DNA of 64,000 nt from an uncultured Burkholderiaceae bacterium (GCA_965284315.1 OZ260072.1:1869243-1933242); one strand, 5' to 3'; shown: positions 19,740-42,504, counted from the stretch's first letter. Program-made: numbers and translations. Notes: generated by a model from the sequence alone, not told the origin.

Positions 19740-19745
19740 GGCCGT

Positions 19746-20318
19746 TTATTTCGCCAACGCCTTCAGCGCCAGCTTGATGCCCTCGCTCACGCCCACATCG
19801 CCCGGCAGGGCTTTCAGGGCCAGCGCCGCTTCCTTGTCGCTGTAGCCCAGCGCCACCAGCGCCTGCAGGATGTCGGCCTGCGCGTCGCTGGCCAGGTTCA
19901 CCGGCAGGCCCATGTCCACGCCCAGCTTGCCCTTGAGTTCCAGCAGCAGCCGCTCGGCCGTCTTTTTGCCAATGCCCGGCACCTTGACCAGCCGGCCTGC
20001 CTCCTGCAGCGTGATGGCCTGCGCCAGCTCGGCCACCGCCATGCCCGACAGCACCGACAGCGCCATGCGCGGCCCGATGCCCGAAATCTTGATCAGTTGG
20101 CGGAAGGCGTTGCGTTCGTCGTGGGTGGCAAAGCCGTACAGCAGCTGCGCGTCTTCGCGCACCACCATGTGGGTCAACAGCGTCAGCTTCTCGCCGGGGG
20201 CGGGCAGGTTGTAGAACGTGCTCATCGGCACATCCACCTCGTAGCCGACGCCGTGGCAGTCCAGCACGATCTGTGGCGGGTTCTTGTCGCCGAGGATGCC
20301 GCTCAATCTGCCTATCAT
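19746..20318 (-). CDS. ruvA: Holliday junction DNA-binding protein RuvA
   Basis: MIGRLSG..., HhH motifs ([21 protein letters not shown]). Directly upstream of ruvB. Confidence 0.95.
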
Positions 20319-20355
20319 TGCCTACCCGATCATTTATTGACATGGAATTATCAGC

Positions 20356-21300: not shown

Positions 21301-21304
21301 CACC

Positions 21305-21778
21305 ATGGCCCGCACCACGCTCCCTGAACTCAACCTGTCGCTGCAATTCGCCCTCGGCCATGCGGCCGAGATGGCGGCCTTGCACCGCGCCGCCCTGCCG
21401 CGCCACCAGGTGGCCCGCTGGCTTCGTCACGCCCTGGCGAGCGATGCCGACATCACGGTGCGCATCGTGGACGCCGAAGAAGCCCGTCGCCTGAACCGCG
21501 ATTACCGGCAGAAAGACTACGCCACCAACGTGCTGACCTTCGACTACGCCGCCACGCCCCGCGTCATGGCCGACCTGGTGCTGTGCGCGCCCGTGGTGGC
21601 CGCAGAGGCGCTTGACCAGCGCAAGCCCTTGCAGGCCCACTACGCCCACCTGCTGGTGCACGGCGCGCTGCACGCCCAGGGCTGGGACCACGAAACCAGC
21701 CCCCAGGACGCCGACGCCATGGAGGCCCACGAAGTGGCGGTTTTGGCCCGCCTGGGCTTCCCCAACCCCTACGCGTGA
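21305..21778 (+). CDS. ybeY: rRNA maturation endoribonuclease YbeY
   Basis: [15 protein letters not shown] zinc-binding motif. Internal ATG at 21305 chosen. Confidence 0.9.
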
Positions 21779-23108: not shown

Positions 23109-24377
23109 TCACGCTGTGAGCGAGACCCGGGCAAACTTGCGCTTGCCCACCTGCACCACAAACACCCCGGCGTCCAGCTTCAGCCCCTTGTCGCTGACCA
23201 CGCTGGAATCCACGCGCACGCCGCCGCCGTCGATCAGGCGGTTGGCTTCTGAGGTGGACGGTGCCAGCCCGGCCATTTTCAACAGCGCCCCAATCCCCAG
23301 TGGCGCACCCGACAGGCTGATTTCAGGCACCTCATCGGGCACACCGCCCTTGCTGCGGTTGGCAAAGTCCTGCTCGGCCGCTTCGGCCGCGGCGGCCGAA
23401 TGGAAGCGGGTGGTGATCTCGCGTGCCAACAGCACCTTGGCGTCTTTCGGGTTGCGGCCCGCAGCCACCTCGGCCCGCAGCGCGGCAATCTCGTCCAGGC
23501 TGCGGAAGCTCAGCAGGGTGAACCAGCGCCACATCAGCTCGTCGCTGATGCTCAGCACCTTGGCAAACATGGTGTTGGGGGCTTCCGAAATGCCGATGTA
23601 GTTGTTCTTGCTCTTGGACATCTTCTCCACGCCGTCCAGGCCTTCCAGCAACGGCATGGTCAAAATGCACTGCGGCTCCTGCCCGTACTCGGCCTGCAAG
23701 TGGCGGCCCACCAGCAAATTGAATTTCTGGTCGGTGCCGCCCAGCTCCAGGTCGCTTTTGAGCGCCACCGAGTCGTAGCCCTGCATCAGTGGGTACAAAA
23801 ATTCGTGCACCGAGATGGAGCGGCCTTCCTTGAAGCGCTTGCTGAAGTCGTCACGTTCCATCATGCGCGCCACGGTGTAGCGGGAGGCGAGTTCGATCAT
23901 GCCGCGCGCCCCCAGCGGGTCGCACCATTCGCTGTTGTAGCGAATTTCCGTCTTGTCAGGGTCCAGCACCATGCTGGCCTGGGCGTAGTAGGTCTGCGCG
24001 TTGGCCGCGATCTGCTCTTTGGTCAGCGGCGGGCGGGTGGTGTTGCGGCCCGACGGGTCGCCGATCATCGACGTGAAGTCGCCGATCAGGAAAATCACCG
24101 TGTGGCCCAAGTCTTGCAACTGACGCAGCTTGTTCAACACCACGGTATGGCCCAAATGAATGTCTGGCGCGGTCGGGTCCAACCCCAGCTTGATGCGCAG
24201 CGGTACGCCACTGGTTTCGGCGCGCTGCAGCTTTTTGACCCATTCGTCACGTGGCAGCAGCTCATCGCAGCCGCGCAAGCTGACCTGCAGCGCGTGGGCG
24301 ACACCCTCGCTGATGGTTACAGGTGGGGTGTTGACGGACTCGGCAGAGGTTGCGGGCGCGTTGAGTACGGTATTCAT
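23109..24377 (-). CDS. tyrS: tyrosine--tRNA ligase
   Basis: HLGH (DIHLGHTV) and KMSKS motifs, with a C-terminal S4-like domain. Confidence 0.95.
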
Positions 24378-24448
24378 AGGGTTTTTCGGCGGACATCGGC
24401 GCTCAAGGCCGATATACTCTTTTCACTCGCATTTCATGGTTTGACGCT

Positions 24449-25897
24449 GTGGATTTTAGTTGCCCAGCCGCTGGTGCTGGCCAACACGTCAAACCATTCG
24501 CCAGCCTCGCGCTGCCGCACAACCAAGTTGGGGACACTAGATTGCAAGCACACGGTCTGACTGCCGCAGGGCACGCCCTTTTCAAATTCATTTCCACCAG
24601 CATCCAGCGCCACCCCAAACGGCTCACCACCGTGCTGGCCGCGCTCATGCTCGGCGGTGGCGGCGGTGCCTTTGCCGTGGCCTCGTTGGTCCCTGACGTT
24701 GCCGACCTGCCGGTGCGCGAAGTGGTGGAAGCGGTTCAGCCGCTGCCGTACGGGCCACAAGCCGCTTTGCTCGACGTGCACAGCTTCAATCTGTTCCGCT
24801 CAGACGTCAGCCGCTCGACCGACTCTGCACAGAGCCTGTTGGCGCGTTTGGGCATTGACGATGCCGAAGCCGTGGCTTTTGTGCGCAACAACGCCTTGAT
24901 GCAAAAGAACGTGATCGGCCGCGCTGGCCGCTCCGTCACCGCCGAAGCCGACGACCAAAATGCCTTGCGCAAACTCACCACCCGCTGGAACAGTGACACA
25001 GAAGGCAGCTTCAACCGCCTGGTGATCGAGAAATCAGCCCAGGGCTTTCAGGCCCGTGTGGAAACCGCACCGCTTGCGGCATCGACCCAGCTCGCCAGCG
25101 GCACCATCCGCACCTCGCTGTTTGCCGCGACGGATGACGCCCGGATTCCCGATGCGATCGCCATCAACCTGGCCGAGATTTTCTCCAGCGAAATCGACTT
25201 CCACCGTGCGCTGCGCAAAGGGGACCGTTTCTCAGTGGTTTATGAAACCCTGGAAGCCGACGGCGAACCCGTCCGCAGTGGCCGCGTGCTGAGTGCCGAA
25301 TTTGTCAACAACGGCAAAACCTACCAGGCCATCTGGTTCCAGGAGCCTGGGCAAAAGGGGGGCTATTACACGCTCGACGGCCAAAGCCTGCGCCGCCCTT
25401 ACCTCGCTTCGCCCATGGCTTTCTCCCGCATGAGCAGCGGCTTCAAGATGCGTTTCCACCCGATCTTGAAAACCTGGCGTGCGCACTTGGGTGTGGACTA
25501 CGCTGCGCCCACCGGCACCCCTGTGCGCGCGGTGGGTGGTGGTGTGGTTGACTTCGCCGGTCGCCAAGGTGGCTTTGGCAACGTGGTGTTCATCAAGCAC
25601 CGCAACAACCACACCACGGTGTATGCCCACCTGAGCCGCATCAATGTGCGCAAAGGCCAAAGCATCGAACAAGGTGAAACCCTTGGCGCTGTCGGTGCCA
25701 CCGGCTGGGCCACCGGTCCCCACTTGCATTTTGAGTTCCGCGTCAATGGCGTGCACCAAGACCCGTTGTTGCTGGCCCGCCAGAGCGAAGCCATTCCTGT
25801 GTCCACCGCGGCACGTCCGCTGTTTGAGCGCACGTCTGCTGCCATGCGGCCACAGCTCGCTGCAGCGGCATTGGCCAGCGTCGCCAGCGCACAGTAG
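24449..25897 (+). CDS. M23 family peptidoglycan metalloendopeptidase
   Basis: HLGVDYAAP...GFGNVVFIKH...GATGWATGPHLHFE motifs. The N-terminal start (GTG at 24449) is uncertain. Confidence 0.85.
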   Translation: MDFSCPAAGAGQHVKPFASLALPHNQVGDTRLQAHGLTAAGHALFKFISTSIQRHPKRLTTVLAALMLGGGGGAFAVASLVPDVADLPVREVVEAVQPLPYGPQAALLDVHSFNLFRSDVSRSTDSAQSLLARLGIDDAEAVAFVRNNALMQKNVIGRAGRSVTAEADDQNALRKLTTRWNSDTEGSFNRLVIEKSAQGFQARVETAPLAASTQLASGTIRTSLFAATDDARIPDAIAINLAEIFSSEIDFHRALRKGDRFSVVYETLEADGEPVRSGRVLSAEFVNNGKTYQAIWFQEPGQKGGYYTLDGQSLRRPYLASPMAFSRMSSGFKMRFHPILKTWRAHLGVDYAAPTGTPVRAVGGGVVDFAGRQGGFGNVVFIKHRNNHTTVYAHLSRINVRKGQSIEQGETLGAVGATGWATGPHLHFEFRVNGVHQDPLLLARQSEAIPVSTAARPLFERTSAAMRPQLAAAALASVASAQ

Positions 25898-25910
25898 TCA
25901 GCCAATCGCG

Positions 25911-25934
25911 AGCGTGACCGTCCACGGTCACGCT
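25911..25934 (+). terminator. perfect 10-bp stem hairpin after the M23 peptidase gene (no T-tract)
   Basis: AGCGTGACCG-TCCA-CGGTCACGCT, 14 nt after the stop codon. Confidence 0.4.
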
Positions 25935-26017
25935 GGTAGAGGTGCGCTGGAAGCCGACTGAACACCATCTAAGGGTTTTCGGTGTCGGTGACAAAACTTT
26001 TCAAGCCGTTATAGGTC

Positions 26018-26042
26018 ACAAACAGCCGTCTGTGCTGTTTGT
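26018..26042. promoter_or_regulatory. perfect 9-bp inverted repeat just upstream of the 26061 gene
   Basis: ACAAACAGC-N7-GCTGTTTGT, followed by RBS CAGGAG and the ATG. Confidence 0.35.
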
Positions 26043-26060
26043 ACCGTCAGGAGCTGTTCC

Positions 26061-26555
26061 ATGTTCAAGAAAATTCCGGTTCTCGCCTTTGGCCTGGCCA
26101 CGTTGACGCTGCTGTCCGCAGTCAGCAGCCACGCGAAACAGCCGCGTGAGCGTGTCTTGAAAAATGCCGAGGTGTTTGTTGACCAGCCCGACAACCTGGC
26201 CACCCGCGTGAAGGTGCTGACCGACGCCAAAGGTGGGTTCCAGGTGACCAACCTGAAACCAGGCATGTACAGAATCGTTGTGCAGACGGGTGAGCCCCCC
26301 AAAGACAAAGACGGCAAGAACCTGGCCGCCAACGACTATGTGGGCCCACAAGGCCTGCGTGGCGCGGTTCGCTGGGGTGAGGCGCGTAAACAGTATGGCG
26401 ACATCAACTACGTCACATTGACCATGGAGCCCACGCGCAGCACTGGCCCATTCAGCCAGAACCAGAAGCTCGTCAACGGGCGAACCATGGGCGTGTTTGT
26501 CACGGTCTACAGCGACAAGGAAGTTCTCAAAGGCGTGGTGACAGGGGAGCCTTGA
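26061..26555 (+). CDS. small secreted protein with carboxypeptidase-regulatory-like (Ig-like) segment
   Basis: Sec signal peptide MFKKIPVLAFGLATLTLLSAVSSHA. The stretch VKVLTDAKGGFQVTNLKPGMYRIVVQ resembles CarboxypepD_reg repeats. Lower GC than the flanks. Confidence 0.55.
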   Translation: MFKKIPVLAFGLATLTLLSAVSSHAKQPRERVLKNAEVFVDQPDNLATRVKVLTDAKGGFQVTNLKPGMYRIVVQTGEPPKDKDGKNLAANDYVGPQGLRGAVRWGEARKQYGDINYVTLTMEPTRSTGPFSQNQKLVNGRTMGVFVTVYSDKEVLKGVVTGEP

Positions 26556-26617
26556 ACCGGGGCAAGCTTCAGGCCCACCGTTTCTTATCTGCGCGCTCAA
26601 AAATCGACAGGCAGCTC

Positions 26618-26932
26618 ATGTTCTACAAAAAATCAGCAGCTCTGATCGTTGCAACTGCCAGCCTGTGTGTACCCACCGTGTCGCAGGCGAGCTTGGGCAT
26701 TGCCAGTGCGCAAAACTGCATGGAATGCCACGCTGTTGACCGCCATTTCAACGCACCGTCTTTCAGGCAGATCGGCGCACGGTACAAGGGTGACAAAACC
26801 GCCCAGGACCGTCTGGCCAAAAAAGTCTTGACAGGTGGCGGCGGCCAATGGGGTCCGAACTCCATGCCCCCCCAGATCATTACCAAGTCCGACGCGCAGA
26901 AAGTCGTGGCCTGGATACTCACCTTGAAGTAA
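26618..26932 (+). CDS. class I c-type cytochrome (c551/c8-like)
   Basis: Signal peptide, heme motif CMECH, and distal Met region (GPNSMPP). About 104 aa. Confidence 0.8.
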   Translation: MFYKKSAALIVATASLCVPTVSQASLGIASAQNCMECHAVDRHFNAPSFRQIGARYKGDKTAQDRLAKKVLTGGGGQWGPNSMPPQIITKSDAQKVVAWILTLK

Positions 26933-26963
26933 GCCACACAACCATTCAACCAACGCGAACATG

Positions 26964-26991
26964 AAAAAGGGGCCCGAAGGCCCCTTTTTTT
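26964..26991. terminator. bidirectional rho-independent terminator
   Basis: AAAAA-GGGGCC-CGAA-GGCCCC-TTTTTTT between convergent genes. Confidence 0.85.
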
Positions 26992-27009
26992 GGAGAGAAG
27001 AATCCCTGA

Positions 27010-28239
27010 TTACAGGAATTTGCCCACCGCACCCAAGGCGATAGGGCCAGCGATTGGCACTTCCTGAACCAGGTTGGTGATGGGCACAAGGGCTGGCAAG
27101 AGCACGTCGCCAACGGGGGCCAGAAGACCTGCCGATACGCCGCCCAAACCAGTCGCCGTCAGAACCTGGTGGAAAGGCAGGTCGTTGCTCAGCTGGTCGC
27201 CACCGCCAATGCCGGCAACAATGTCGTCCACGTACACGATCTGGTCGGTCAGGCCGGTGATCAAGTCGAGCGTGGCGTTGAGTTGCTTGCCGTCGGTGAA
27301 GTCACCGATCAGAGGCAGGTCTACTAAAGCACCTTCAATCGCATTGGTCAACGAACCCAAGATACCTTGCTCGGTCACCAGGAATTGCAGGTAGTCTTCC
27401 GACAGCAAACCACCGCTGTAGGCGCCGATGAAGGCGGTGACAGCGGGCAAGTCACCACCGACGACCATGCGCGTGATTTCATTTACCAGTGGGATGCCTT
27501 CGGTGAGGGCAACAGGGCGGGTGGCGAGTTCATACAAGAGGATTTCTTCACCGACCGAGTTGCCACCCAACAGGCTTTGGGCAAGCCCAAACAAAGGCGT
27601 GCCGTACAGCGGGGTCACCAGGAAGCTGGAGAGCGAACCACCTTCAACACCTTGGCCAACGATGCCGTTGAGGGCTTCGCCTAGGATGGGGATGCCGTAC
27701 GTTGCGTCGGCTAACGTGGCCAGCAAGCCGCCGATTGGCGAAGAGCTGCTGCCGCCGACGTCGCCAGTGCCGGAAGTACCCGCACCACCGCCCAAGCCAC
27801 CCAGACCGCCGCTGAGGAGGTCAAGGCCGGGCAGGCCACCACCGCCCAGGCCGCCGAGTGCGTCCACACCAGGCAGGGCCGCTGTGGCAGTGCCGCTACC
27901 CAAACCGCCGGTCAGGCCAGACAACAGGTCCAGCGGCGAACCGCCACCGGTCAAACCACCCAGCAGGTCCAATGGCGAGCCGCCACCGGTCAAACCACCC
28001 AGCAGGTCCAGCGGCGAACCGCCACCGGTCAAACCACCCAGCAGGTCCAATGGCGAGCCGCCACCGGTCAAACCACCGAGGATGCTCAGAGGTGAAGAAG
28101 AGCCTTCTTCGCCGCCACCAGTCAGGCCGGTCAACAGGCTCAGCGGGGAACCTGCGCCACCCGACAGACCGCCCAAGAGGCCGGTCAGGCTGCCGAGTCC
28201 GCCACCTGCGCTCAACAAAGAGTCAAAAGGAAGTGCCAT
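27010..28239 (-). CDS. orphan acidic Gly/Leu-rich repeat protein
   Basis: RBS GGAGA 8 nt upstream of the ATG. Codon usage matches the two upstream genes. N-terminal third is made of GSPLDLLGGLTGG repeats. No recognisable family, signal peptide or cofactor motif. Confidence 0.6.
   Translation of the reverse strand: MALPFDSLLSAGGGLGSLTGLLGGLSGGAGSPLSLLTGLTGGGEEGSSSPLSILGGLTGGGSPLDLLGGLTGGGSPLDLLGGLTGGGSPLDLLGGLTGGGSPLDLLSGLTGGLGSGTATAALPGVDALGGLGGGGLPGLDLLSGGLGGLGGGAGTSGTGDVGGSSSSPIGGLLATLADATYGIPILGEALNGIVGQGVEGGSLSSFLVTPLYGTPLFGLAQSLLGGNSVGEEILLYELATRPVALTEGIPLVNEITRMVVGGDLPAVTAFIGAYSGGLLSEDYLQFLVTEQGILGSLTNAIEGALVDLPLIGDFTDGKQLNATLDLITGLTDQIVYVDDIVAGIGGGDQLSNDLPFHQVLTATGLGGVSAGLLAPVGDVLLPALVPITNLVQEVPIAGPIALGAVGKFL
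27892..28086 (-). repeat. in-frame 39-bp tandem repeats (core 27931-28086, four units in ABAB pattern, plus degenerate flanking units)
   Basis: Plus-strand units cagcggcgaaccgccaccggtcaaaccacccagcaggtc and caatggcgagccgccaccggtcaaaccacccagcaggtc alternate. Both encode DLLGGLTGGGSPL. Confidence 0.9.
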
Positions 28240-28260
28240 TTTAATTCTCCAATATAAGGT

Positions 28261-28833
28261 TCAACGGAATGACGGCGCAGCAGCCATCATGGCGGCGCGG
28301 ATACGTGGGTACGTACCGCAGCGGCACATGTTGGCTTGCATGGCGTTCGTGATGCCTTCATCTGTCGCGGCACCTTTGACGCGGGTCAGATACTCGTAAG
28401 CGCTCATCAACTGACCCGCCTGACAAAAACCACACTGGGCAACGTCAAACTGTTCCCATGCGGCCTGCAGTGCAGGGCCGTTGGGCAGGCCCGACAGGCC
28501 TTCGATCGTGGTGATGTTGATTGCAGGAGTGCTGCCTGCCGCGACGCCGACGTCACCAATACGCGTCACGCAAGTACGGAATTTGTTCTTTTGCGTGGTT
28601 GGCTGTGTGCCGCTGAAACGGCTGTCAGGCGAGTAAGGGCTGTTGCCATTGCCGCCTTCAGCGACGATGGGTGTTGACGAGTTGCAGGTGCAAGCACCGC
28701 AAACGCCCACGCCACAACCGTACTTGGGGCCTGTCAATTCCAGCTTGTCGCGCAGGATGTACAGGAGGTAATCGTTCTTGTCAGCTGTAACGGTGCGTGG
28801 CGTGCCGTTCACTGAAATGGTAAAAGATGCCAT
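28261..28833 (-). CDS. (2Fe-2S)-binding small subunit of a molybdopterin oxidoreductase (IorA/CoxS-like)
   Basis: Cluster I CGVGVCGAC...C and cluster II QCGFCQAGQLMS...CRCGTY. An unusual long insertion lies inside cluster I. Confidence 0.85.
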   Translation of the reverse strand: MASFTISVNGTPRTVTADKNDYLLYILRDKLELTGPKYGCGVGVCGACTCNSSTPIVAEGGNGNSPYSPDSRFSGTQPTTQKNKFRTCVTRIGDVGVAAGSTPAINITTIEGLSGLPNGPALQAAWEQFDVAQCGFCQAGQLMSAYEYLTRVKGAATDEGITNAMQANMCRCGTYPRIRAAMMAAAPSFR

Positions 28834-28854
28834 GGTATGTGTGCTCCTGAAGGA

Positions 28855-31272
28855 TTAAGCGTCGGTCAGAGGGGCCGATGGCGAGTTGTAAATCGGCAGC
28901 TCTTCGGGCATGTGCGATTCCAGGCTTGGGTTCAGTTCGCGGTTGATGTCGGCCCAGGCGTTGGCCACAGCGGCCAATGCAGAAGGGGCACTCAGTTCAC
29001 CGGCACCACCCACGCGGTTGTCATTGATGTTGACAAACACGGTTGGGTTGAACTTGTAAGCGCACTCGCGCATGCGGTTCCAGTAGTAGTTCAAGAACGT
29101 GCTTTGCTGCGCAGCGCCATCAACAAAAGTGATTTTGCTGAAGTACACCATCGCGATGGCGTCGGCCAGAGCACCTTCGGCCATGGACGCACCACCCGAT
29201 GGGTTGGTGACCTTGCCCATGTCCACGGCAGCCCAGACTTCCTTCACGGTCGGTGGCACTTTCTTGATGTCGGCGTTGCGGGCCAGTTCTGACACCACGA
29301 TCTGCATGGAAGCGCTGTTCCATTCTTCGTGGCAACCGAAACCAATGCCTTGCACGGTGCTGGCACCACTGGCGTTGTGCGCTTTAACAGCCGCTGCAGC
29401 GGCGTCGTAGGTGGCCTTCATCTCGTTGAAGATGCCACGCAGGCGCTCGGACTTGAAGTACTTGAGGCGCAGCTCAAACGGGTTTTGACCCGTTTTGCGT
29501 GCCAGCTCGTCCATGAAGATTTCCTTGCCGCCCTGGCCGCTCACGCTGTACACGGCGCGCATGGCGCCGGTTGGGAACGGTGCCACGACTTCGCGGAAAG
29601 CTTCTGTGGTGTTGAACGAGTACGGCGATGGTGCCGACAGCGGGAAATAGTCGAAACCGGTCTGGTTGGTCGCCGACAGTAGGGTTTCCGTCGGGGTGTT
29701 GTCCACGCCAGAGGGCAGTTCGCACAGGATCGAGACAAACTTGTGGTTCAGGCTCAGGATGGATTTGCCGTCAGAACCAATGTTGGCAATGTAGCGGCTG
29801 AAGGTGGGCGGACGGTATGGGCACATGCGCAGATCGTCGTTGCGCGACCACATCACCTTGATACGGTTGGTGGTCACACCCTTGGCATTGGTCAAACCAC
29901 CCATCTTGCGGACAGCATCGGCGATGCGTGCGGACTCGGCAGACGATTCCACCAGCAGGTTGCGACCGAAGTGGCCGTAACCTTGTGTCACGTTGAGCAA
30001 CACCTTGGTAGGCGACAGGTCAAGACCAACCTGTTGGGCCAACTGTTGGCGGTTGAAACGCGGTACCTGCGATGCCCACCAGGCTTGCAGGCTGGTGCAA
30101 GGCCCGCTCTTGTCGCCGTAGGCTTCTGCCACACCAGCTTGCGTACCCAGGGTACCTTGGGCGTGGAAGCCCACGAAGAAACCACGCTTCACTTGCTTTG
30201 CGGCCAGCAATTTGCCGCCAGCGGGATCAGGACCCACGGCGTCTTTCAGCTTCTGGTTCAGCATGGGGGTGCTGAAACGGGCTGCGGTGCCTGGCTTCCA
30301 GGTGATCAGGTCTCGGGCCATGATCTGGTCACGGGCTTCCAGCGCGTCACCGAATGTGTCGGCCGCAATGCCCACGCCGGTGTAAATGGTGAAACCATTT
30401 TTGTTGGAGTTGAAGGGAATCACGGCCTTGACCAGCTTCGTGCCGTCTGGCTTGGTCAGGTTCATGATGGCCGCGGTGTCCACCTTGTCTGGTGCACCAC
30501 GGGTTTGCAGTGAGTGCATCACCAGCACGTTCACCGCATCCATTTGCGTGTCGATGGTGTACTTGAGGCTACCGTTGTAGATGGCCTTGCTGTCAATGCG
30601 TGGGATGCCAGTGCCTGGAACAAGGTCCGCGCTGTTGCCGCGAATTTTCATGCCTTTGCCCAGGAGACCACCGGCTTTTTGACCGCCTGCATCAACACCA
30701 TATGCCCAGGCAGATGCCACGGGGCGCGAGCCGAGGGTTGCGGCAGCTGCAGCAGGAGCCAAAGAGGCAAAAGTTTTGCCGCCAGCGGTTGGACCACCAG
30801 CGCCAGATGCGATAGGACCGCCGACAGCCAGCATGCGGGCGCGCAGTTCAGCGCCAACGGTACGAACTGGGTCGGTCAGCAGACGGGTTGAGCCAGAAGC
30901 GCCCACCAGCGTGGTGGTGAAGGCAGTGGCTTTTGCGGTCGTGAAGGATTGGCCAATCACATCGCTGACTGGAATGCCAATTTCGTCGGCCAACAGGATG
31001 GCCATGGAGGTCAAAATGCCTTGGCCCGATTCAACGCGTGGGATCGTCAGGATCACCTTGTTGTCGCTGCGAATCGCAACGTACGCGTTCATCTCTACAG
31101 ATGTTGTTTCAGCAGCCGTGGCGTCTGATGCGTCCGTGGCGAGCTTGACGCCAATGGTCAACGCGGCTGGTGTTGCCACCACCCAGGTCATGAAATTCCG
31201 GCGGTCAACTTTTGGTGTGCTGACCTCGGCGCTTGTGTTGTCGCTCTGAGGAACAAGGAGTTCAGTGTTCAT
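28855..31272 (-). CDS. xanthine dehydrogenase family molybdopterin-binding subunit (IorB-like), Tat-exported
   Basis: Tat signal RRNFMTWVVATPAALTIGV. IorB-like N-terminal motif (VAIRSDNKVILTIPRVESGQGILTSMAILLADE). 805 aa. Confidence 0.85.
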   Translation of the reverse strand: MNTELLVPQSDNTSAEVSTPKVDRRNFMTWVVATPAALTIGVKLATDASDATAAETTSVEMNAYVAIRSDNKVILTIPRVESGQGILTSMAILLADEIGIPVSDVIGQSFTTAKATAFTTTLVGASGSTRLLTDPVRTVGAELRARMLAVGGPIASGAGGPTAGGKTFASLAPAAAAATLGSRPVASAWAYGVDAGGQKAGGLLGKGMKIRGNSADLVPGTGIPRIDSKAIYNGSLKYTIDTQMDAVNVLVMHSLQTRGAPDKVDTAAIMNLTKPDGTKLVKAVIPFNSNKNGFTIYTGVGIAADTFGDALEARDQIMARDLITWKPGTAARFSTPMLNQKLKDAVGPDPAGGKLLAAKQVKRGFFVGFHAQGTLGTQAGVAEAYGDKSGPCTSLQAWWASQVPRFNRQQLAQQVGLDLSPTKVLLNVTQGYGHFGRNLLVESSAESARIADAVRKMGGLTNAKGVTTNRIKVMWSRNDDLRMCPYRPPTFSRYIANIGSDGKSILSLNHKFVSILCELPSGVDNTPTETLLSATNQTGFDYFPLSAPSPYSFNTTEAFREVVAPFPTGAMRAVYSVSGQGGKEIFMDELARKTGQNPFELRLKYFKSERLRGIFNEMKATYDAAAAAVKAHNASGASTVQGIGFGCHEEWNSASMQIVVSELARNADIKKVPPTVKEVWAAVDMGKVTNPSGGASMAEGALADAIAMVYFSKITFVDGAAQQSTFLNYYWNRMRECAYKFNPTVFVNINDNRVGGAGELSAPSALAAVANAWADINRELNPSLESHMPEELPIYNSPSAPLTDA

Positions 31273-31418
31273 AGTACCTTCTGTAGTGCTAAAGGTTTAG
31301 GAAAATCCCAGCGCCGAGTGTAGGTAGCCATTCCCCCAGAAACTCTAGGGAAAACCATTAGCTTGGGTAAACCACTATTAAACAAATGTGAAATTTGGCA
31401 CGGTTTAGTGAGCGCAGT

Positions 31419-31433
31419 GTCTCAAATTGAGAC
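31419..31433. promoter_or_regulatory. palindrome in the long leader/promoter region of the Mo-enzyme operon
   Basis: GTCTCAA-A-TTGAGAC. A second palindrome, GCACCGGTGC, lies at 31452-31461. Confidence 0.3.
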
Positions 31434-31628
31434 TGTAACGGTCTCTTGTGTGCACCGGTGCGCAGCACAAACGCCCAGTTGTCAGTCTATTGAATTACTG
31501 TGGGCGGGCCAATGAAGCCATAGGTTCGCGCTGACAGAGCCCACCTGAATGCCATTTTGTAAGCCTTGCCGGCGCATTCCGGTAAAACTTTCTCCCTAGC
31601 CACCCGCCAATGGAACTGTTTAGGGGGG

Positions 31629-32117
31629 TTAGCGCTTGGGGGGTGTCGCGCGCGCGGCCGCCGCGTCCTTGGGGGTTGGCATGTCGAGCGTCAACACGGG
31701 GGGGCCGTCCACACTGGCAGCGAGTTGGGCGCGGCGGGGTGACACTGCGCTCAGCACCAGCCCATCGGTGACGGTGCTGCCCACCTGGTAGGGTTTGGGT
31801 GGTTTGCCGTCAATGCCAATCAACGCAGCGGCGCTGTCTTCGCCGGCAATCACGCCCAGCAATGCCAGGCGGCTGGCCACTGTCGGTGCTGCGACGATGG
31901 CCACCTGGGCTTCGACTGCTCCCATCAGTTTGGCCACGGCGGATGCATCCACCAGCGCGCCCTCGTTGTTGGGCAGCAGCGAGGCGATGGCCGCACGGTC
32001 TGCCAATGCGCTGCCAGGCATGCGTCCGCTCCACTGCAAACCCCAGGCCACAGCACTGCCCATGGCCAAAGCCCAGACCAAAAATGCCAACCCAAGAGAC
32101 CAAGTTTTGCTTTGCAT
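31629..32117 (-). CDS. gspC: type II secretion system protein GspC (HR domain only, no PDZ)
   Basis: N-terminal TM helix and HR-like segment RLALLGVIAGEDSAAALIGIDGKPPKPYQVGSTVTDGLVLSAV. Divergent from gspG. Confidence 0.65.
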   Translation of the reverse strand: MQSKTWSLGLAFLVWALAMGSAVAWGLQWSGRMPGSALADRAAIASLLPNNEGALVDASAVAKLMGAVEAQVAIVAAPTVASRLALLGVIAGEDSAAALIGIDGKPPKPYQVGSTVTDGLVLSAVSPRRAQLAASVDGPPVLTLDMPTPKDAAAARATPPKR

Positions 32118-32182
32118 GCAACGATTATGATCCAGCTCAATCACAATACCGCGTGTGCATAACCACTGACCGATTGGCTTTT

Positions 32183-32611
32183 ATGAAGTTGTCTGCAAAA
32201 CGAATGGCGCGGGGTTTTACCCTGATCGAGTTGATGGTCGTGCTGGTCATCATTGGTGTACTGGCTGCGCTGATTGTTCCCAACGTGCTGGACCGTGCTG
32301 ACGACGCGCGGGTGACCGCCGCCCGCACCGATGTCAACAACATGGTGCAGGCCCTGAAGCTCTACAAACTCGACAACCAGCGCTTTCCCACCGCCGAGCA
32401 AGGTCTGCAGGCGCTGGTGACCAAGCCCACGGTTGGGCCGATTCCACCCAACTGGCGCCCTTACCTCGACAAGTTGCCCAAGGACGCATGGGGCCAGCCA
32501 TACCAGTACCTGAATCCAGGTGTACACCAGGAAATTGACGTGTTGTCGTTCGGGGCGGACGGGCAGGCCGGCGGTGAAGGGAAAAATGCCGACATCGGCA
32601 GCTGGCAATAA
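32183..32611 (+). CDS. gspG: type II secretion major pseudopilin GspG
   Basis: Prepilin leader plus GFTLIELMVVLVIIGVLAALIVP and the conserved GspG body (DAWGQPYQY, SFGADGQ). Confidence 0.93.
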   Translation: MKLSAKRMARGFTLIELMVVLVIIGVLAALIVPNVLDRADDARVTAARTDVNNMVQALKLYKLDNQRFPTAEQGLQALVTKPTVGPIPPNWRPYLDKLPKDAWGQPYQYLNPGVHQEIDVLSFGADGQAGGEGKNADIGSWQ

Positions 32612-32633
32612 AACCACCTGGCGCCCTACGTGA

Positions 32634-33086
32634 ATGCGATGCATGAATGGCTTTTCTGTCACGTCAGACCATCGCACGCGCGGTTTCACGCTGCTCGAGT
32701 TGTTGGTCGTCATTGCCTTGATTGCCATTGCGTCTGCCAGTGTCAGCTTTGCCTTCCGTGACTCGTCCGACACCCAGCTCCAGCGTGAAGCGGACCGCCT
32801 GGCAGCGCTGCTGGACTCGGCCCGCAGCCGCTCGCGCACCTTGGGCATGCCGGTGTACTGGCGTGCTGTGCCGGGTGGTTTTCGGTTCGAAGGCCTGCCA
32901 CTGGGCACCTTGCCCGAGCGCTGGCTGGTCGATGGCACGACCGTGGTCAACAACGGTGTGCTGATCCTGGGGCCTGAGCCCATCCTCGCGCGGCAGGGGA
33001 CGGTCATCGCGCTGCAGGGACGGCGCCTGCTGGTGGCAACCGACGGTGTGCGCCCGTTTGTGGTTCTGCCAGTGGGGGCGCCATGA
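32634..33086 (+). CDS. gspH: type II secretion minor pseudopilin GspH
   Basis: GFTLLELLVVIALIAI prepilin N-terminus; position after gspG. Confidence 0.8.
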   Translation: MRCMNGFSVTSDHRTRGFTLLELLVVIALIAIASASVSFAFRDSSDTQLQREADRLAALLDSARSRSRTLGMPVYWRAVPGGFRFEGLPLGTLPERWLVDGTTVVNNGVLILGPEPILARQGTVIALQGRRLLVATDGVRPFVVLPVGAP

Positions 33087-33448
33087 CACGCCCGTATCTG
33101 TCACGCGGTTTCACATTGATTGAGGTGCTGGTCGCGCTGGGCATTGTCTCGGTGGCGCTGATTGCCGGCATGCAGGCCAGCAGCGCGCTGACACGCAATG
33201 CCCAGCGGCAGGCCGATGGCTTGTTGGCGGAACTGTGCGCTGAGAACGAGTTGGTCAAAATCCGCTTGGCCGAGCAGTTTCCTGGTGTCGGTGAGAGCAC
33301 TTTCACCTGCACCCAGGTCGAACGTGTGCTGGAGGGGCGGTTGACCGTGGCGACCACGCCCAACCCTAATTTTCTGCGTGTCGATGCGCAGGTGTTTGAT
33401 GGGCCGTACAGCCTGTTGCGCATCTCTACCGTGGTGGGGCGTTTCTGA
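33083..33448 (+). CDS. gspI: type II secretion minor pseudopilin GspI
   Basis: GFTLIEVLVALGIVSVAL. ATGA overlap with gspH. Confidence 0.85.
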   Translation: MTRPYLSRGFTLIEVLVALGIVSVALIAGMQASSALTRNAQRQADGLLAELCAENELVKIRLAEQFPGVGESTFTCTQVERVLEGRLTVATTPNPNFLRVDAQVFDGPYSLLRISTVVGRF

Positions 33449-34125
33449 TGGCACGTCTTGCAAGACCGGCTGCGGGATTCACCCTGATCGAGCTCCTGGT
33501 CACGATCAGCATCATGGCCTTGATGACCCTGCTGAGCTGGCGTGGCATCGACGGCATGATGCGAACCAAAGACCAGCTGTCGGCGCGCAGCGACCAGGTG
33601 ATGACGCTGCAGACCGCCCTGACCCAGTGGACGGTGGACCTCGACAACCTGGCCGAAACCCGCGTGGTGAGCGCGGCGGACTACGACGGCAGCGTGCTGC
33701 GCATGACACGCCGTGATGCGGTCAGCCCAGCCGAGGGCTTGCGGGTGGTGGCGTGGACCCGCCGTCTTGCGGACGGCAATGCCTTCTGGGTGCGCTGGCA
33801 GTCACCCAACGTCCGAACCCAGTCTGACTTGTTGGCGGCCTGGGCCAAGGCGCAGCAATGGGGCCGAGAGCCAACGCCCGAAGACCGCGCCTTGGACATC
33901 CCCCTCGCGGTGCTGACCGATTGGCAGCTCTTTTATTACCGCGACAATGCCTGGAGCAACCCCCTCTCCAGCGCGGCGGACCCCAACCAACCTGTGGCCA
34001 GTGGACTGAATGCGCCACCCAAAGGGGTCAGGCTGGTGTTGGCCCTGGCGCCCGGTCAGCCGTTCGCGGGTGTTTTGACCCGCGATTGGGTGAGACCGCT
34101 GGTGGGTGGCGGGAAATCGCTGTGA
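33448..34125 (+). CDS. gspJ: type II secretion minor pseudopilin GspJ
   Basis: GFTLIELLVTISIMALM. 1-nt overlap with gspI (TGATG). Confidence 0.85.
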   Translation: MARLARPAAGFTLIELLVTISIMALMTLLSWRGIDGMMRTKDQLSARSDQVMTLQTALTQWTVDLDNLAETRVVSAADYDGSVLRMTRRDAVSPAEGLRVVAWTRRLADGNAFWVRWQSPNVRTQSDLLAAWAKAQQWGREPTPEDRALDIPLAVLTDWQLFYYRDNAWSNPLSSAADPNQPVASGLNAPPKGVRLVLALAPGQPFAGVLTRDWVRPLVGGGKSL

Positions 34126-35090
34126 GCCCTAAAAATACCCAGATGGGCGCAGCGCTGCTGACGGCCATGTTGACCGTGACACTGGTCGCGAGTTTTGCTG
34201 CCACCGCGCTGTGGCAGCAGTTCCGCAGCGTTGAGGTGGAGCGTGCCGAGCGCGAGCGTGTGCAGGCGACCTGGATTTTGAACGGTGCCCTGGACTGGGC
34301 GCGCCTGATCCTGCGTGAAGACGCCCGTTCCGGTGGGGCGGATTCGTTGTCTGAACCCTGGGCGGTACCGCTGGCCGAATCGCGCTTGTCCAGCTTTCTG
34401 GCGGCCGACCGCAACAACACCGACGACGACACTTCCGACACTTTTTTGTCGGGCCAGATCGTGGATGCGCAGTCGCGTTTGAATGTGGCCAACCTGCTCG
34501 ATGGTGGCAAACCGTCCCAGCTCGGCTTGCAGAGCTTTGCCCGGTTGTTCCAGGTGCTGGGTTTGCCAGAAGGTGAATTGAACCTGTTGGTCAACAATTT
34601 CCAGTTGGCAATGACCAGCACCGGTGGCGGGGGCAATGTTCCGCTGAGGCCCTTGCGCACGGATCAGTTGATCTGGCTCGGCATTGCCCCTGAAACACTG
34701 GCCCGACTCAAGCCTTTTGTGGTGCTGCTTCCCGTCAACACACCGGTCAACCTGAACACCGCTGGTGTCGAGGTGGTGTACGCCAGCATTCCGACCATCA
34801 CAATGGCCGATGCGCGCAAGTTGGTGGAGCAGCGCACCAAAACGCCATTCCGCTCCTTGTCGGAAGTGGGCATCTTCATGGTGGAGCTCGCCGGTTTGCT
34901 GACCGAAAGTCAGCAAAGTGTGTCCAGCCGCATGTTCGAGGTGTATGGTCGGCTGCGGATTGACAAGACCGTGATCCAGGAGCTCTCGCTGGTGGAGCGA
35001 GAGAATCTCAATGTGACGGCGCTTTACCGGGAACGCAGCGCTTTCGTGGACAACCCTGCCGCGGCCCAGGCCGACAGCACTCTAAAATAA
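34122..35090 (+). CDS. gspK: type II secretion minor pseudopilin GspK
   Basis: GAALLTAMLTVTLVA N-terminal helix and GspK-like body. GTG at 34122 overlaps the gspJ stop (an ATG at 34143 is an alternative start). Confidence 0.85.
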   Translation: MSPKNTQMGAALLTAMLTVTLVASFAATALWQQFRSVEVERAERERVQATWILNGALDWARLILREDARSGGADSLSEPWAVPLAESRLSSFLAADRNNTDDDTSDTFLSGQIVDAQSRLNVANLLDGGKPSQLGLQSFARLFQVLGLPEGELNLLVNNFQLAMTSTGGGGNVPLRPLRTDQLIWLGIAPETLARLKPFVVLLPVNTPVNLNTAGVEVVYASIPTITMADARKLVEQRTKTPFRSLSEVGIFMVELAGLLTESQQSVSSRMFEVYGRLRIDKTVIQELSLVERENLNVTALYRERSAFVDNPAAAQADSTLK

Positions 35091-35094
35091 TTCA

Positions 35095-36282
35095 ATGTCT
35101 TCGCTGATCGTCGTTCTCCCTGCTCCCGGAAGCCGTGTCAGCGCTGACTACGTCTACGCACTCACGCCCGATGGGCAAAGCCTCGCTGACCATGGCGTGG
35201 CACCTGCCAACCTGTTGCCAGACGCCACCGAACTGGTGGCGGTGGTGCCGGCCAAAATGGTGTCGTGGCACCGGCCCATCATTCCCAAAGCGCCGGCCAA
35301 CCGTTTGAGCGAGGTGCTGCAAGGCGCACTCGAAGAGAACCTGCTCGACGATCCGGAAACCCTGCACCTGGCACTGGCGCCGGGCGCGCGTTCGGCGCTG
35401 GGCAGCGGCGAGCCGATCTGGGTGGCTGCGTGCGACAAGGACTGGCTGCGGGAGGTGCTGGAAGGGCTGGAAACCGTGGGTTTGCGTGTCACGCGCATCG
35501 TGCCCGAGGTGGTGCCTGAGCTGGACCAGTGGTGGGTGCATGGCACGCCGCAGTCGGCCTGGTGTGCGCAGTCAGACGCCCAGGGCGTGGCGGTGTTGCC
35601 GTTGGCGGCGGTGCCGTCGGCCACCGTGCCAGGCGTGTTTGCCGAACCCGCTGTGGCGGCTTTGGCAGAGCAGACGCTGGGCGTCAAGGTGACGATTCGC
35701 CAGATGCCGCAGCAGCTGGTGCTGGCCGCACAGACCGACTGGAACCTGGCGCAGTTTGATCTGGCCACTGCCGGTCGCAAAGGCGCCAGCCAGCGCCTGC
35801 TGCATGGCTGGCAACTGTTTGCGCTGGCGCCGCAATGGCGGGCCTTGCGCTGGGGGCTCGGTGCCCTGTTTGTGGTCCAGCTGGTGGCCATCAATGGCCT
35901 GGCCTGGAGCGAAAAATCGGCGCTGAACGCCAAGCGCGCAGAGCTGCGCAAGATTTACCTGGACACCTTCCCGCAGAGCCAGGTGGTGCTCGACCCTGTG
36001 GCGCAAATGACGCGCGATGTGTCCGCCTTGCAGCAGGCGGTGGGGCAGGTCACTTACCGTGACATGGAGGTGATGCTGTCGTACGCGGCAGTGGTCTTGC
36101 CAGCCGGGCGCACGCCCAGTGCGGTGGAGTTCAAGCCGGGTGAAATCAGGCTCAATGGCATCAGCATCACGCCAGACGAACTCAAGGGCATGGACACGCG
36201 CTTGCGCGAAGCCGGCTACCAGATGACCAGCCAGGCCGACGGGCTGGTGCTCACCTTCAACCCAAACAAGGCCCGCCTGTGA
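35095..36282 (+). CDS. gspL: type II secretion system protein GspL
   Basis: Size, position, cytoplasmic actin-like N-terminal domain, and a single TM helix (WGLGALFVVQLVAINGLAW). Confidence 0.8.
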   Translation: MSSLIVVLPAPGSRVSADYVYALTPDGQSLADHGVAPANLLPDATELVAVVPAKMVSWHRPIIPKAPANRLSEVLQGALEENLLDDPETLHLALAPGARSALGSGEPIWVAACDKDWLREVLEGLETVGLRVTRIVPEVVPELDQWWVHGTPQSAWCAQSDAQGVAVLPLAAVPSATVPGVFAEPAVAALAEQTLGVKVTIRQMPQQLVLAAQTDWNLAQFDLATAGRKGASQRLLHGWQLFALAPQWRALRWGLGALFVVQLVAINGLAWSEKSALNAKRAELRKIYLDTFPQSQVVLDPVAQMTRDVSALQQAVGQVTYRDMEVMLSYAAVVLPAGRTPSAVEFKPGEIRLNGISITPDELKGMDTRLREAGYQMTSQADGLVLTFNPNKARL

Positions 36283-36764
36283 GCCGTTTTTCCGACCTCC
36301 GCCTACCGGGTTGGTGGCAGTCCATTCCGTCCGAGACGCGCACGCTGGGTGTCCTGGTGTCGGCTGCGCTGGCCGTGGTGCTGCTGTCTGCGCTGACCAT
36401 TCTCCCGTCCCTGAAGGTGTTGCGGCTGGCGCCGGCTGACCACCAGCAACTGGATCAGCAGCTGGACCTGATGCGCAATCTGGCGACGCAGGCACAAAGC
36501 GCCAAGGCCCAGCCCAAACCCGGTGCCGACGACGCGCTGAAGTTCCTGGACACCGCGGTCAAACAGTCGCTGGCAGCGACCGCCCAAATGACAGTGTCGG
36601 GCGACCGCGCCACCATCACGCTCAAAAACGCCACGCCCGAATCGGTCACCGCCTGGCTGACCGCCGTGCGTGCTACTGGTCGGCTGTTGCCTGCCGAAGC
36701 CAAACTCAGCCGGAGCGACGCGGGTTGGAGTGGCCAGTTGGTCGTCAACCTGCCGCAGAAGTGA
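36279..36764 (+). CDS. gspM: type II secretion system protein GspM
   Basis: GTGA overlap with gspL. N-terminal TM helix plus a periplasmic domain; position in the cluster. Confidence 0.75.
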   Translation: MSRFSDLRLPGWWQSIPSETRTLGVLVSAALAVVLLSALTILPSLKVLRLAPADHQQLDQQLDLMRNLATQAQSAKAQPKPGADDALKFLDTAVKQSLAATAQMTVSGDRATITLKNATPESVTAWLTAVRATGRLLPAEAKLSRSDAGWSGQLVVNLPQK

Positions 36765-36772
36765 GCCGGACC

Positions 36773-37591
36773 ATGGTGACCCGCCCACGTTCCCCTGCCG
36801 TTGCCGCACCCGCCGGGTCGCGGACGCGCCGGCTTGCCTGGTTTGGGGCATTGACAGGTGGCCTGCTGGCCATCGTGTTCTGGATGCCAGCCCATTGGCT
36901 GACCGGCGTCGTCAACCGCGCCTCACAGCAGCGCGTGGTGCTTGAAGACGCCCGTGGCACGGTTTGGACGGGTTCGGCCCGCCTGCTCGTCAGCGGTGGC
37001 GAGGGCAGCCGCGATGTGGCCGCCTTGCCAGGTCGGGTGGACTGGCGGCTGCGCCCCACTTTCACCGGCGCCTGGCTGGAGCTGCAGTCCACCTGCTGTA
37101 CCCGCGTACCGGTCGAGATCGATGCCAGTCCGCGTTGGAACGGTGCCGTGCTGCAAGTGGGGTCGTTGCAACTGCGCTGGCCGATGGGCCTGCTGGCGGG
37201 GCTGGGGACACCCTGGAACACGGTGCAATTGCAGGGCAACCTCGACATGAATTCGGATGGCTTGACGCTGGCCTGGGACAGCGGTCGCTTGCAGGCCACC
37301 GGCCAGGTGCGCATGGAGGCGACCGACGTGGCGTCCCGGTTGTCCACCCTGCGGCCGCTTGGCAGCTACCTGCTGGAATTGGTGGCGCCCGGTCCGGGGC
37401 AGGACCCAAGCCTGAGCCTGAAAACACTCAGTGGCAATTTGATTCTCACTGGCCAGGGCCAGTGGGTGGGTGCGCGGCTCCGGTTTTCGGGTGAAGCGAC
37501 CGCCGTGGAAGGGCGCGAAGCGGCCCTGGACAATTTACTCAATATCATCGGGCGCAGAAGCGGCGCGCGCTCCATCATTACCGTGGGCTGA
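36773..37591 (+). CDS. gspN: type II secretion system protein GspN
   Basis: N-terminal TM helix (LAWFGALTGGLLAIVFW); position between gspM and gspD. A GTG at 36761 is an alternative start. Confidence 0.7.
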   Translation: MVTRPRSPAVAAPAGSRTRRLAWFGALTGGLLAIVFWMPAHWLTGVVNRASQQRVVLEDARGTVWTGSARLLVSGGEGSRDVAALPGRVDWRLRPTFTGAWLELQSTCCTRVPVEIDASPRWNGAVLQVGSLQLRWPMGLLAGLGTPWNTVQLQGNLDMNSDGLTLAWDSGRLQATGQVRMEATDVASRLSTLRPLGSYLLELVAPGPGQDPSLSLKTLSGNLILTGQGQWVGARLRFSGEATAVEGREAALDNLLNIIGRRSGARSIITVG

Positions 37592-37595
37592 CCTC

Positions 37596-39845: not shown

Positions 39846-39858
39846 GCAAGGGATTTTT

Positions 39859-41250: not shown

Positions 41251-41255
41251 CCCGC

Positions 41256-42503: not shown

Positions 42504-42504
42504 C

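Follow-up and report, generated by a model that had tools for sequence, protein, structure and literature searches.

Enzymes of the xanthine-oxidase family of molybdenum hydroxylases are, by the common account, assembled from a small, familiar set of parts, namely molybdenum-binding (Mo) subunits, iron-sulfur (FeS) subunits, and FAD or cytochrome modules, with the help of XdhC-type chaperones. What is the role of a gene that encodes none of these parts and yet closes an operon for such an enzyme? This question is raised by positions 27,010 to 31,272 of a 64,000-nucleotide (nt) stretch of DNA from an uncultured Burkholderiaceae bacterium (GCA_965284315.1 OZ260072.1:1869243-1933242), herein referred to as the window. 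The third gene of this operon, herein referred to as ORF3 (open reading frame 3), very probably encodes a dedicated functional partner of the enzyme. The operon consists of the following elements.

28855..31272, minus strand: gene for the Mo-binding large subunit (ORF, 805 amino acids (aa); divergent IorB type, xanthine-oxidase family)
28834..28854, minus strand: Mo/FeS spacer of 21 nt with an AGGAG ribosome-binding site (direct sequence reading)
28261..28833, minus strand: gene for the 2x[2Fe-2S] small subunit, IorA type (ORF, 190 aa; without signal peptide)
28240..28260, minus strand: FeS/ORF3 spacer of 21 nt with a GGAG ribosome-binding site (direct sequence reading)
27010..28239, minus strand: ORF3, gene for an orphan acidic Gly/Leu-rich protein (ORF, 409 aa)

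The coordinates, the minus strand, and the 21-nt gaps had been given in an earlier reading made from the sequence alone (herein, the sequence-only reading), and all of them were confirmed by ORF calls and direct sequence.

A conserved gene trio with an orphan third member

The gene order Mo-FeS-ORF3, with gaps of approximately 18-27 nt, was found in all 12 distinct loci having DNA upstream of the ORF3 homolog. These loci are the window, L001/L011, L002-4/L010, L005, L006, L007, L009, L012, L013, L021, L022, and L023; in L023, nothing of the FeS gene but its end is left on the contig. Metagenome-assembled genomes (MAGs) or metagenome contigs are the source of nearly all related loci. In the two most divergent members of the Mo clade (49 and 46% identity), the third genes are also ORF3 homologs (hhalign probability 100%; 43 and 37% identity). 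At least seven further co-occurrences of the Mo, FeS, and ORF3 genes are suggested by matching records in three protein searches. The identities of the three proteins co-vary between loci, and the three families are of comparable small size and equally isolated. Synteny of ORF3 homologs with the Mo and FeS genes, on which the sequence-only reading had made its proposal depend, thus holds in every such locus and in four different genomic contexts.

ORF3 is a real gene, being under purifying selection like both enzyme genes. For its C-terminal domain, comparison with the two closer relatives gives ratios of nonsynonymous to synonymous substitution rates (dN/dS) of 0.20 (dS 0.38) and 0.14 (dS 1.19). 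The values for the same relatives are 0.16 and 0.15 for the Mo gene and 0.18 and 0.14 for the FeS gene, matching those of ORF3. This range of 0.14-0.20 answers the doubt, raised in the sequence-only reading, whether ORF3 is translated at all. The C-terminal half of ORF3 also has the coding signature in the G+C content of the three codon positions (GC1>GC2<GC3). A Pro-rich ORF of 323 aa lies antisense to ORF3 (27428-28399, plus strand) and is without this signature. It was rejected as a gene and is considered an artefact that mirrors the Gly codons of ORF3 (GGN read as NCC).

No match to ORF3 was found in Pfam or NCBIfam at E<=0.1. Nine C-terminal domains of the ORF3 family, searched at E<=10, had no Pfam or NCBIfam match either, including XdhC, and a search of the PDB by sequence and by profile yielded nothing at E<=10, including 3ON5 and 2WE8. 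Thus, no profile search places ORF3 in the XdhC family or another known accessory family. A search of 5.8 billion proteins identified an ORF3 family of approximately 36 clusters (287-428 aa), none of them named and none with a Pfam domain; the weaker matches of this search were of low complexity. The profile of the C-terminal domain, compared with 1.84 billion representatives, matched only four clusters, all from the ORF3 family. The ORF3 gene was found in 6 of 185,579 species-representative genomes, all of them Comamonadaceae/Burkholderiaceae-type MAGs; when 241 million metagenome records were scanned, no more than three further loci, all short, came to light. No account of a comparable third component was found in the literature. 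As far as sequence can tell, ORF3 resembles nothing known and is an orphan.

Taken together, the gene order in the 12 loci, the co-variation, the equal dN/dS, and the isolation of the families argue, by sequence comparison, that ORF3 is an obligate, clade-specific accessory protein. The sequence-only reading had proposed a variant of a periplasmic Mo hydroxylase with a cofactor-less partner. This proposal is supported, and the three tests set in advance (synteny, coding, and membership in a known family) came out in its favor.

The sequence-only reading had also described the third protein as lacking a recognizable domain, Cys residues, a signal peptide, and a clear transmembrane (TM) helix. 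The database searches and the residue counts bear this out; at the same time, the protein is not featureless, having a three-part architecture and a very unusual composition.

28204..28239, minus strand: N-terminal short motif MA-x-x-LP-F/L-D-x-LL (alignment; P4 and L8 invariant)
27745..28203, minus strand: variable low-complexity linker, residues 13-165, 39% Gly and 25% Leu (Tandem Repeats Finder (TRF), composition)
27013..27744, minus strand: conserved C-terminal domain of approximately 245 aa, essentially indel-free across the family (alignments, hhalign)

The N-terminal motif is still present in the homolog of L013, the most divergent one (287 aa), which has almost no linker. Both the length and the sequence of the linker differ among homologs. 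In the window, the 153-residue linker is acidic, with a grand average of hydropathy (GRAVY) of +0.51. It contains an in-frame tandem repeat of 39 bp in 3.9 copies (27925-28077; TRF), encoding four times GGLTGGGSPLDLL. The repeat region is 100% identical when taken as a 78-bp unit, and close relatives differ in repeat number and arrangement. This pattern points to recent in-frame expansion and contraction, as judged from the repeat sequences. The C-terminal domain carries the motifs GGNSxGxE, AFIGxxxGGLxSEDxLQ, and TDQIxYVDDxxAGxxGGDxLS, with many invariant Gly, Asp, and Glu residues. The extreme C-terminus is strongly conserved as well (QEVxIAGxIxxGxxGK plus two residues); its ...LGxxGK ending is reminiscent of the cargo-loading peptides of encapsulins, and the loci examined showed no shell gene.

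The window protein has no Cys and no Trp, a net charge of -30, and a GRAVY of +0.63. All homologs are devoid of Cys and Trp, contain almost no His or Met, and have 25-43 Asp and Glu residues against 3-8 Lys and Arg. Neither a signal peptide nor a credible TM helix was found in the sequence. A role as membrane anchor was rejected, as the sole hydrophobic segment (residues 367-385, Kyte-Doolittle score 1.71) is unconserved and includes three Pro as well as Asp. Assignment to the repeats-in-toxin (RTX) calcium-binding proteins was rejected too: there is no HemolysinCabind match, and the GGLPGLDxL / GGLTGGGSPLDLL repeats are out of register with GGxGxDxUx. Neither the 39-bp repeat, nor the extreme acidity combined with hydrophobicity, nor the cytochrome gene lying tail-to-tail with ORF3 (see below) had been reported in the sequence-only reading.

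Structure prediction was made with AlphaFold2 (AF2). For ORF3 alone, with an alignment of 23 sequences, the mean predicted local distance difference test score (pLDDT) is 44.7; the linker has a pLDDT below 50 and no predicted secondary structure. A fused model of 1199 aa was built from the mature Mo subunit, the FeS subunit, and ORF3 residues 150-409 with an unpaired block alignment, omitting the signal peptide and the N-terminus of ORF3. In this model, the ORF3 segment has a pLDDT below 50, the FeS subunit 75-89, and parts of the Mo subunit up to 93. No docking of ORF3 on Mo/FeS was seen in the fused model, which was built without the signal peptide and is therefore silent on contact with it. 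Low-confidence helices appear at matching positions of ORF3 in both runs, which is weak evidence that its C-terminal domain may be all-alpha.

The enzyme, its cytochrome, and the mobile module

The class of the enzyme is familiar, being that of the periplasmic dehydrogenases of IorAB type; it departs from this class in its gene order, in its degree of divergence, and in the orphan accessory gene. The Mo subunit matches Pfam MoCoBD_2 (E 3.6e-12; 46.8 bits against a cutoff of 27) and reaches 25.0 bits for MoCoBD_1, just under the cutoff of 27. Its nearest solved structure is the large subunit of the membrane aldehyde dehydrogenase of Gluconobacter (8GY3_C; E 4e-14, two regions), and the second solved relative is quinoline 2-oxidoreductase. 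In the database search, the clade comprises approximately 23 clusters at 46% identity or more, followed by a sharp drop to 23-25% for ordinary proteins annotated as isoquinoline 1-oxidoreductase beta. In an alignment with six ordinary IorB proteins, the motifs E80-x-GQG, FGR436, W474xRxDD, R571, D587-E588, and GxGE758 are kept, and residues E80, G82, G84, R436, R476, R571, D587, E588, G755, G757, and E758 are invariant. E758 of the GxGE motif is presumably the catalytic Glu. Since the motifs for catalysis and for contact with the molybdenum cofactor (Moco) are invariant, the Mo enzyme of the clade looks catalytically competent by motif retention. The clade is set apart by several insertions, a tail at the C-terminus, and a long conserved n-region of the signal peptide.

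31114..31272, minus strand: twin-arginine translocation (Tat) signal peptide, Mo residues 1-53, with the RR pair at 31201-31206 (RR invariant in alignment)
28570..28683, minus strand: clade-specific FeS insertion of approximately 35 aa that separates Cys3 from Cys4 in the first cluster, ...SRFSGxQPT...KFRxC (alignment)

The Tat motif is DRRNFMTW. R23 and R24 do not vary when aligned with ordinary IorB proteins, and RRNF is also found in 8GY3_C. The cleavage site (ATA|AE) was placed by eye. The n-region (MNTELLxPQS...) is acidic and conserved across the clade, placing 21-25 residues before RR, against 2-13 in ordinary IorB. The IorB-like Mo subunit with a twin-arginine signal, as described in the sequence-only reading, is thus borne out by the MoCoBD_2 match, the DRRNFMTW motif, and 8GY3_C, and the [2Fe-2S] nature of the second subunit by its Fer2_2 (E 7.7e-22) and Fer2 (E 4.4e-08) matches in Pfam. 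In the FeS subunit, the eight Cys ligands of the clusters (C-x4-C-x2-C...C and C-x2-C...C-x-C) are kept in all clade members. Its relatives include approximately 24 long forms (180-198 aa, at least 49% identity), followed by ordinary IorA proteins of 152-158 aa at 40-47%. The insertion is present in all clade members and, judged by this jump in length, is missing from ordinary IorA.

The order Mo-then-FeS, found in the window and in 11 other loci of the clade, is reversed relative to IorAB. FeS-first had been named as the usual order in the sequence-only reading, and two ordinary IorAB loci (L018 and L020) do have FeS followed by Mo; neither has an ORF3-like gene. The gene following iorB in L018 (6210-9449) encodes a 1079-aa BNR/Sortilin-Vps10-like protein, another unusual third gene beside an enzyme of IorAB type. 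With IorAB and the deoxyribose dehydrogenase of Pseudomonas simiae (PS417_10890/10885/10880; PMC6365646), the clade shares a Tat-dependent Mo subunit, an FeS subunit without signal, and a c-type cytochrome as the likely acceptor. It differs from IorAB in the identities given above (23-25% to IorB, 40-47% to IorA), in the reversed order, and in the FeS insertion, the long n-region, and the C-terminal tail of Mo. In contrast to the IorAB-like enzymes, its cytochrome is a soluble monoheme c551 encoded on the opposite strand, and an obligatory orphan third gene is added. The Gluconobacter enzyme (8GY3) is likewise a three-component periplasmic Mo enzyme with the RRNF Tat motif; its membrane anchor is the third subunit, a multi-heme cytochrome c. 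ORF3 differs from this subunit in having no Cys, no CxxCH, no Cytochrom_C match, and no TM helix.

Two genes converge on the Mo operon from the other side.

26552..26932, plus strand: gene for a monoheme cytochrome c of c551/c552 type with a CMECH motif and a signal peptide (Pfam Cytochrom_C, PDB matches)
26061..26555, plus strand: gene for a periplasmic CarboxypepD_reg-like protein, 164 aa, with a signal peptide (Pfam match below cutoff)

The two genes overlap by 4 nt and form a unit spanning 26061-26932. The probable start of the cytochrome is the MFYKK ATG at about 26618, and its signal peptide was read by eye. Of its 18 PDB matches, 16 are of c551/c552 type (E 4e-16 to 6e-12, the best at about 1e-15 to 1e-16). 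ORF3 and the cytochrome c gene are arranged tail-to-tail in the window, L002-4/10, L006, L007, L008, L012, and L013. For related IorAB-like enzymes, an operon-encoded cytochrome c was proposed as the electron acceptor (PMC6365646). The linked c551 is the probable electron acceptor of the Mo enzyme and probably a part of the mobile module. The sequence-only reading had noted that the third component of such enzymes, when present, is a multi-heme cytochrome c or an FAD subunit. Its conclusion that ORF3 binds no heme c or FeS stands; the c551 gene, convergent with ORF3 and moving with the trio, had been missed. Because this cytochrome is encoded beside ORF3 and moves with the trio, ORF3 need not replace a cytochrome subunit. 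The 164-aa gene was found only in the first of the four contexts listed below and is absent in L012 and L013; it is context-specific and stands outside the core module.

Context 1 (window): M23 peptidase and tyrosyl-tRNA synthetase genes ... CarboxypepD_reg-like and cytochrome c genes / module / gspC
Context 2 (L001/L011, L005): metW / module / nitroreductase gene; no adjacent cytochrome c
Context 3 (L012): 5'-nucleotidase gene / cytochrome c and module / gene for an SbmA-like ATP-binding cassette (ABC) transporter
Context 4 (L013): cytochrome c and module beside a GlmU-like gene

The cytochrome c gene stands beside the trio in three of the four contexts (1, 3, and 4) and is absent from context 2. 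In the window, a PF06189 5'-nucleotidase gene (42505-43419) directly adjoins the gene for an SbmA/BacA-like ABC transporter (43438-45285), and the module of L012 sits between these two genes. As the two are adjacent in the window, the cytochrome c gene and the trio of L012 were inserted as one unit. Thus, the trio and the cytochrome gene form a compact, horizontally mobile four-gene module. The G+C content of the module is 59-60%, against 62-72% in the flanks. Over window positions 24001-34000, which hold the module and its immediate neighbors, G+C falls to 59-62%, compared with 63-72% in the rest of the window; this dip fits horizontal acquisition of the module.

The MAG JAIXXF01 (Comamonadaceae bacterium D4_MAG_00044) has two diverged copies of the trio, L007 and L011, whose ORF3 C-terminal domains are 77 and 50% identical to that of the window. 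The first is found in context 1 with the cytochrome c gene and the second in context 2 without it. This suggests that the two copies are paralogous enzymes sharing one cytochrome, possibly with different substrates.

Window positions 31629-45285 hold a complete type II secretion system (T2SS) cluster, followed by the 5'-nucleotidase and SbmA/BacA-like genes. The cluster includes gspC on the minus strand and gspG-K, L, the secretin gene gspD (37470-39845), gspE, and gspF on the plus strand. A functional link of the module to type II secretion was rejected as the main explanation. That the module borders the cluster in two arrangements is explained by two points of insertion into a single conserved region of the chromosome, and no T2SS is present near contexts 2 and 4.

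Two further elements flank the operon.

31273..31628, minus strand: intergenic region of 356 nt located 5' of the Mo gene (promoter scan and Rfam)
26964..26991, both strands: bidirectional intrinsic terminator shared by the Mo operon and the cytochrome c operon that converges on it (folding)

In the 356-nt region, a consensus scan of the minus strand found no sigma-70 consensus, and no Rfam element, including the Moco riboswitch, was found. The terminator has the form A5-GGGGCC-CGAA-GGCCCC-T7, i.e., an A-tract, a GC stem of 6 bp with a 4-nt loop, and a T-tract. It was missed by the consensus terminator scan and confirmed by folding (-23.5 and -19.6 kcal/mol; z -2.2 and -3.2). The genes of the trio stand in one reading frame, each gap consisting of a stop codon and seven codons. 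A fusion of the trio by stop-codon read-through was rejected, as the gaps in other loci (18-27 nt) are not always multiples of three; the common frame is probably a coincidence and not programmed read-through. Elsewhere in the window, a 560-aa ORF at 19651-21333 (minus strand) has no Pfam match at E<=1e-5 and overlaps a 524-aa ORF on the opposite strand.

The role of ORF3

The reading that we favor, at somewhat less than even confidence, is that ORF3 acts in the cytoplasm as an escort or maturation factor specific to this system. We infer the following scheme for how electrons travel, where ORF3 is located, and how it would serve as a chaperone. The Mo subunit carries the Tat signal, and the signal-less FeS subunit would bind it in the cytoplasm and be co-exported by hitch-hiking. 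The acidic, hydrophobic C-terminal domain of ORF3 would hold the basic apo Mo-FeS dimer, and the flexible Gly/Leu linker and the N-terminal motif may engage the long conserved signal peptide. ORF3 would remain bound until cofactor insertion and dimer assembly and would then be released before Tat export. In the periplasm, electrons would leave Moco, cross both [2Fe-2S] clusters to reach the soluble c551, and continue to the respiratory chain. ORF3 would thus be a functional analog of TorD, DmsD, NapD, XdhC, and PaoD, unrelated to any of them.

Because ORF3 has neither a signal peptide nor a TM helix, its default location is the cytoplasm. The escort reading also draws on four other properties of the system. 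First, ORF3 is the last gene of its operon, in the same way as the genes for PaoD (PMC3909100) and XdhC (PMC10609526). Second, the signal peptide of the clade acquired a long and conserved n-region, an element of the type that dedicated chaperones recognize. Third, an acidic and hydrophobic protein suits the holding of a basic apo-enzyme and its signal peptide. Fourth, the linker is long, hydrophobic, and predicted to be unstructured, and segments of this kind should be poorly suited to passage through Tat. The lack of an ORF3-like gene in ordinary IorAB operons fits a need specific to the divergent clade. Low-complexity segments combining Gly with hydrophobic residues occur in chaperones, such as the GGM tail of GroEL and the G/F region of DnaJ.

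Known escort proteins offer both likeness and difference. XdhC and PaoD (YagQ) are encoded by the last gene of the operon, and each serves a single enzyme without becoming a subunit of its mature form (PMC3909100; PMC10609526); ORF3 shares with them its position and its dedication to one enzyme. Rossmann-like domains are found in the XdhC proteins, which bind Moco (PMC10609526). ORF3, in contrast, is without sequence similarity to XdhC or PaoD, without an XdhC_CoxI or XdhC_C match, and without a nucleotide-binding signature, and is of low complexity, acidic, and Cys-free. TorD/DmsD/NarJ and NapD are cytoplasmic proteins dedicated to exported enzymes of the DMSO-reductase family and are small and well folded; no homology of ORF3 to them was found in Pfam, NCBIfam, or the PDB. 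Dedicated chaperones of Tat molybdoenzymes bind the signal peptide as well as another site and belong to structurally unrelated families (PMC10609526), so that one more unrelated family is plausible.

Several points weigh against the escort reading. The location of ORF3 and its binding partner are parts of the scheme that we infer. AF2 neither folds the C-terminal domain nor docks ORF3(150-409) on the mature Mo and FeS subunits. The composition of ORF3 is unlike that of any known molybdoenzyme chaperone, and, without Cys or a Rossmann-like domain for handling Moco, an XdhC-like role in cofactor supply is unlikely. The acidic n-region of the signal disfavors binding by an acidic ORF3, and a protein of 409 aa is large for an escort. 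Moreover, the evidence from co-inheritance suits a stoichiometric subunit equally well.

Such a subunit is the main rival explanation, which we regard as possible but rather doubtful. ORF3 would be a cofactor-less third subunit that is exported as a Tat hitch-hiker and serves in the periplasm as an acidic docking or tether element. Its C-terminal domain could sit on the basic enzyme while the linker and the N-terminal motif reach a partner, e.g., the basic c551. An acidic, cofactor-less hinge subunit of the mitochondrial bc1 complex, QCR6/UQCRH, promotes docking of a basic c-type cytochrome in this manner; ORF3 is unrelated to it in sequence, size, architecture, and enzyme class, and the analogy applies only to ORF3 as a subunit. 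The charges are complementary: -30 in ORF3 against +9 in the mature Mo subunit, +3 in FeS, and +6 in the mature c551. Strict co-inheritance, co-variation, and equal selective constraint agree with a subunit, as does a family-wide composition free of Cys and Trp and almost free of His and Met. The clade-specific insertions in Mo and FeS could form the interface, the cytochrome c gene moves with the trio, and ORF3 fills the slot held by the third subunit in related enzymes (PMC6365646; 8GY3). However, context 2 (L001/L011, L005) retains ORF3 without an adjacent cytochrome c, and the fused AF2 model gives no docking. A linker of approximately 150 hydrophobic (GRAVY +0.51) and unstructured residues should travel poorly through Tat, and the conserved long n-region of the signal would be left unexplained. 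To our knowledge, a cofactor-less subunit of this type has not been described for any enzyme of the xanthine-oxidase family.

It is improbable that ORF3 has an independent function and is merely co-transcribed with the enzyme genes, as a secreted or surface acidic protein (exported independently of a signal peptide), a matrix or metal-binding handler of the product, or a cytoplasmic inhibitor acting before export. An acidic, Gly-rich, Cys-free protein with no N-terminal signal and a conserved C-terminus resembles type I secretion substrates in composition, and in two arrangements the module adjoins a T2SS cluster. Nevertheless, no RTX/HemolysinCabind match was found, and the T2SS adjacency reflects two insertion points, is missing in contexts 2 and 4, and involves secretion genes that do not travel with the module. 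The close spacing of the genes, and the inheritance of ORF3 without exception alongside a single enzyme clade, speak for a link through physical contact or maturation.

Finally, a chance ORF in G+C-rich repeat DNA, which the low-complexity N-terminal 40%, the 323-aa antisense ORF, and the lack of an AF2 fold might suggest, is refuted by the codon-position G+C of the C-terminal domain, the ribosome-binding site and terminator, the dN/dS of 0.14-0.20 at dS of 0.4-1.2, and the conservation of a 245-aa indel-free domain down to 37% identity, the antisense ORF being a Pro-rich mirror of Gly codons.

Meaning for the enzyme family and its hosts

The clade is a rare, divergent branch of exported Mo oxidoreductases in freshwater betaproteobacteria. 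It diverged in its core subunits, signal peptide, and gene order while acquiring an obligatory orphan protein. Tentatively, ORF3 may found a new class of cofactor-less partners for exported redox enzymes, consisting of a docking motif, an elastic tether, and an all-alpha C-terminal domain, and acting either as a Tat-travelling tether that recruits c551 or as an escort chaperone of new fold. If this is true, either version would add a type of component new to the biology of molybdoenzymes. As an escort, ORF3 would be the first dedicated Tat-proofreading partner for the xanthine-oxidase family, with a new architecture; as a subunit, it would represent a new way of coupling a periplasmic dehydrogenase to a soluble cytochrome. 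The compact, mobile four-gene module should be suitable for heterologous expression, and the enzyme may represent an unrecognized oxidation step in freshwater Comamonadaceae.

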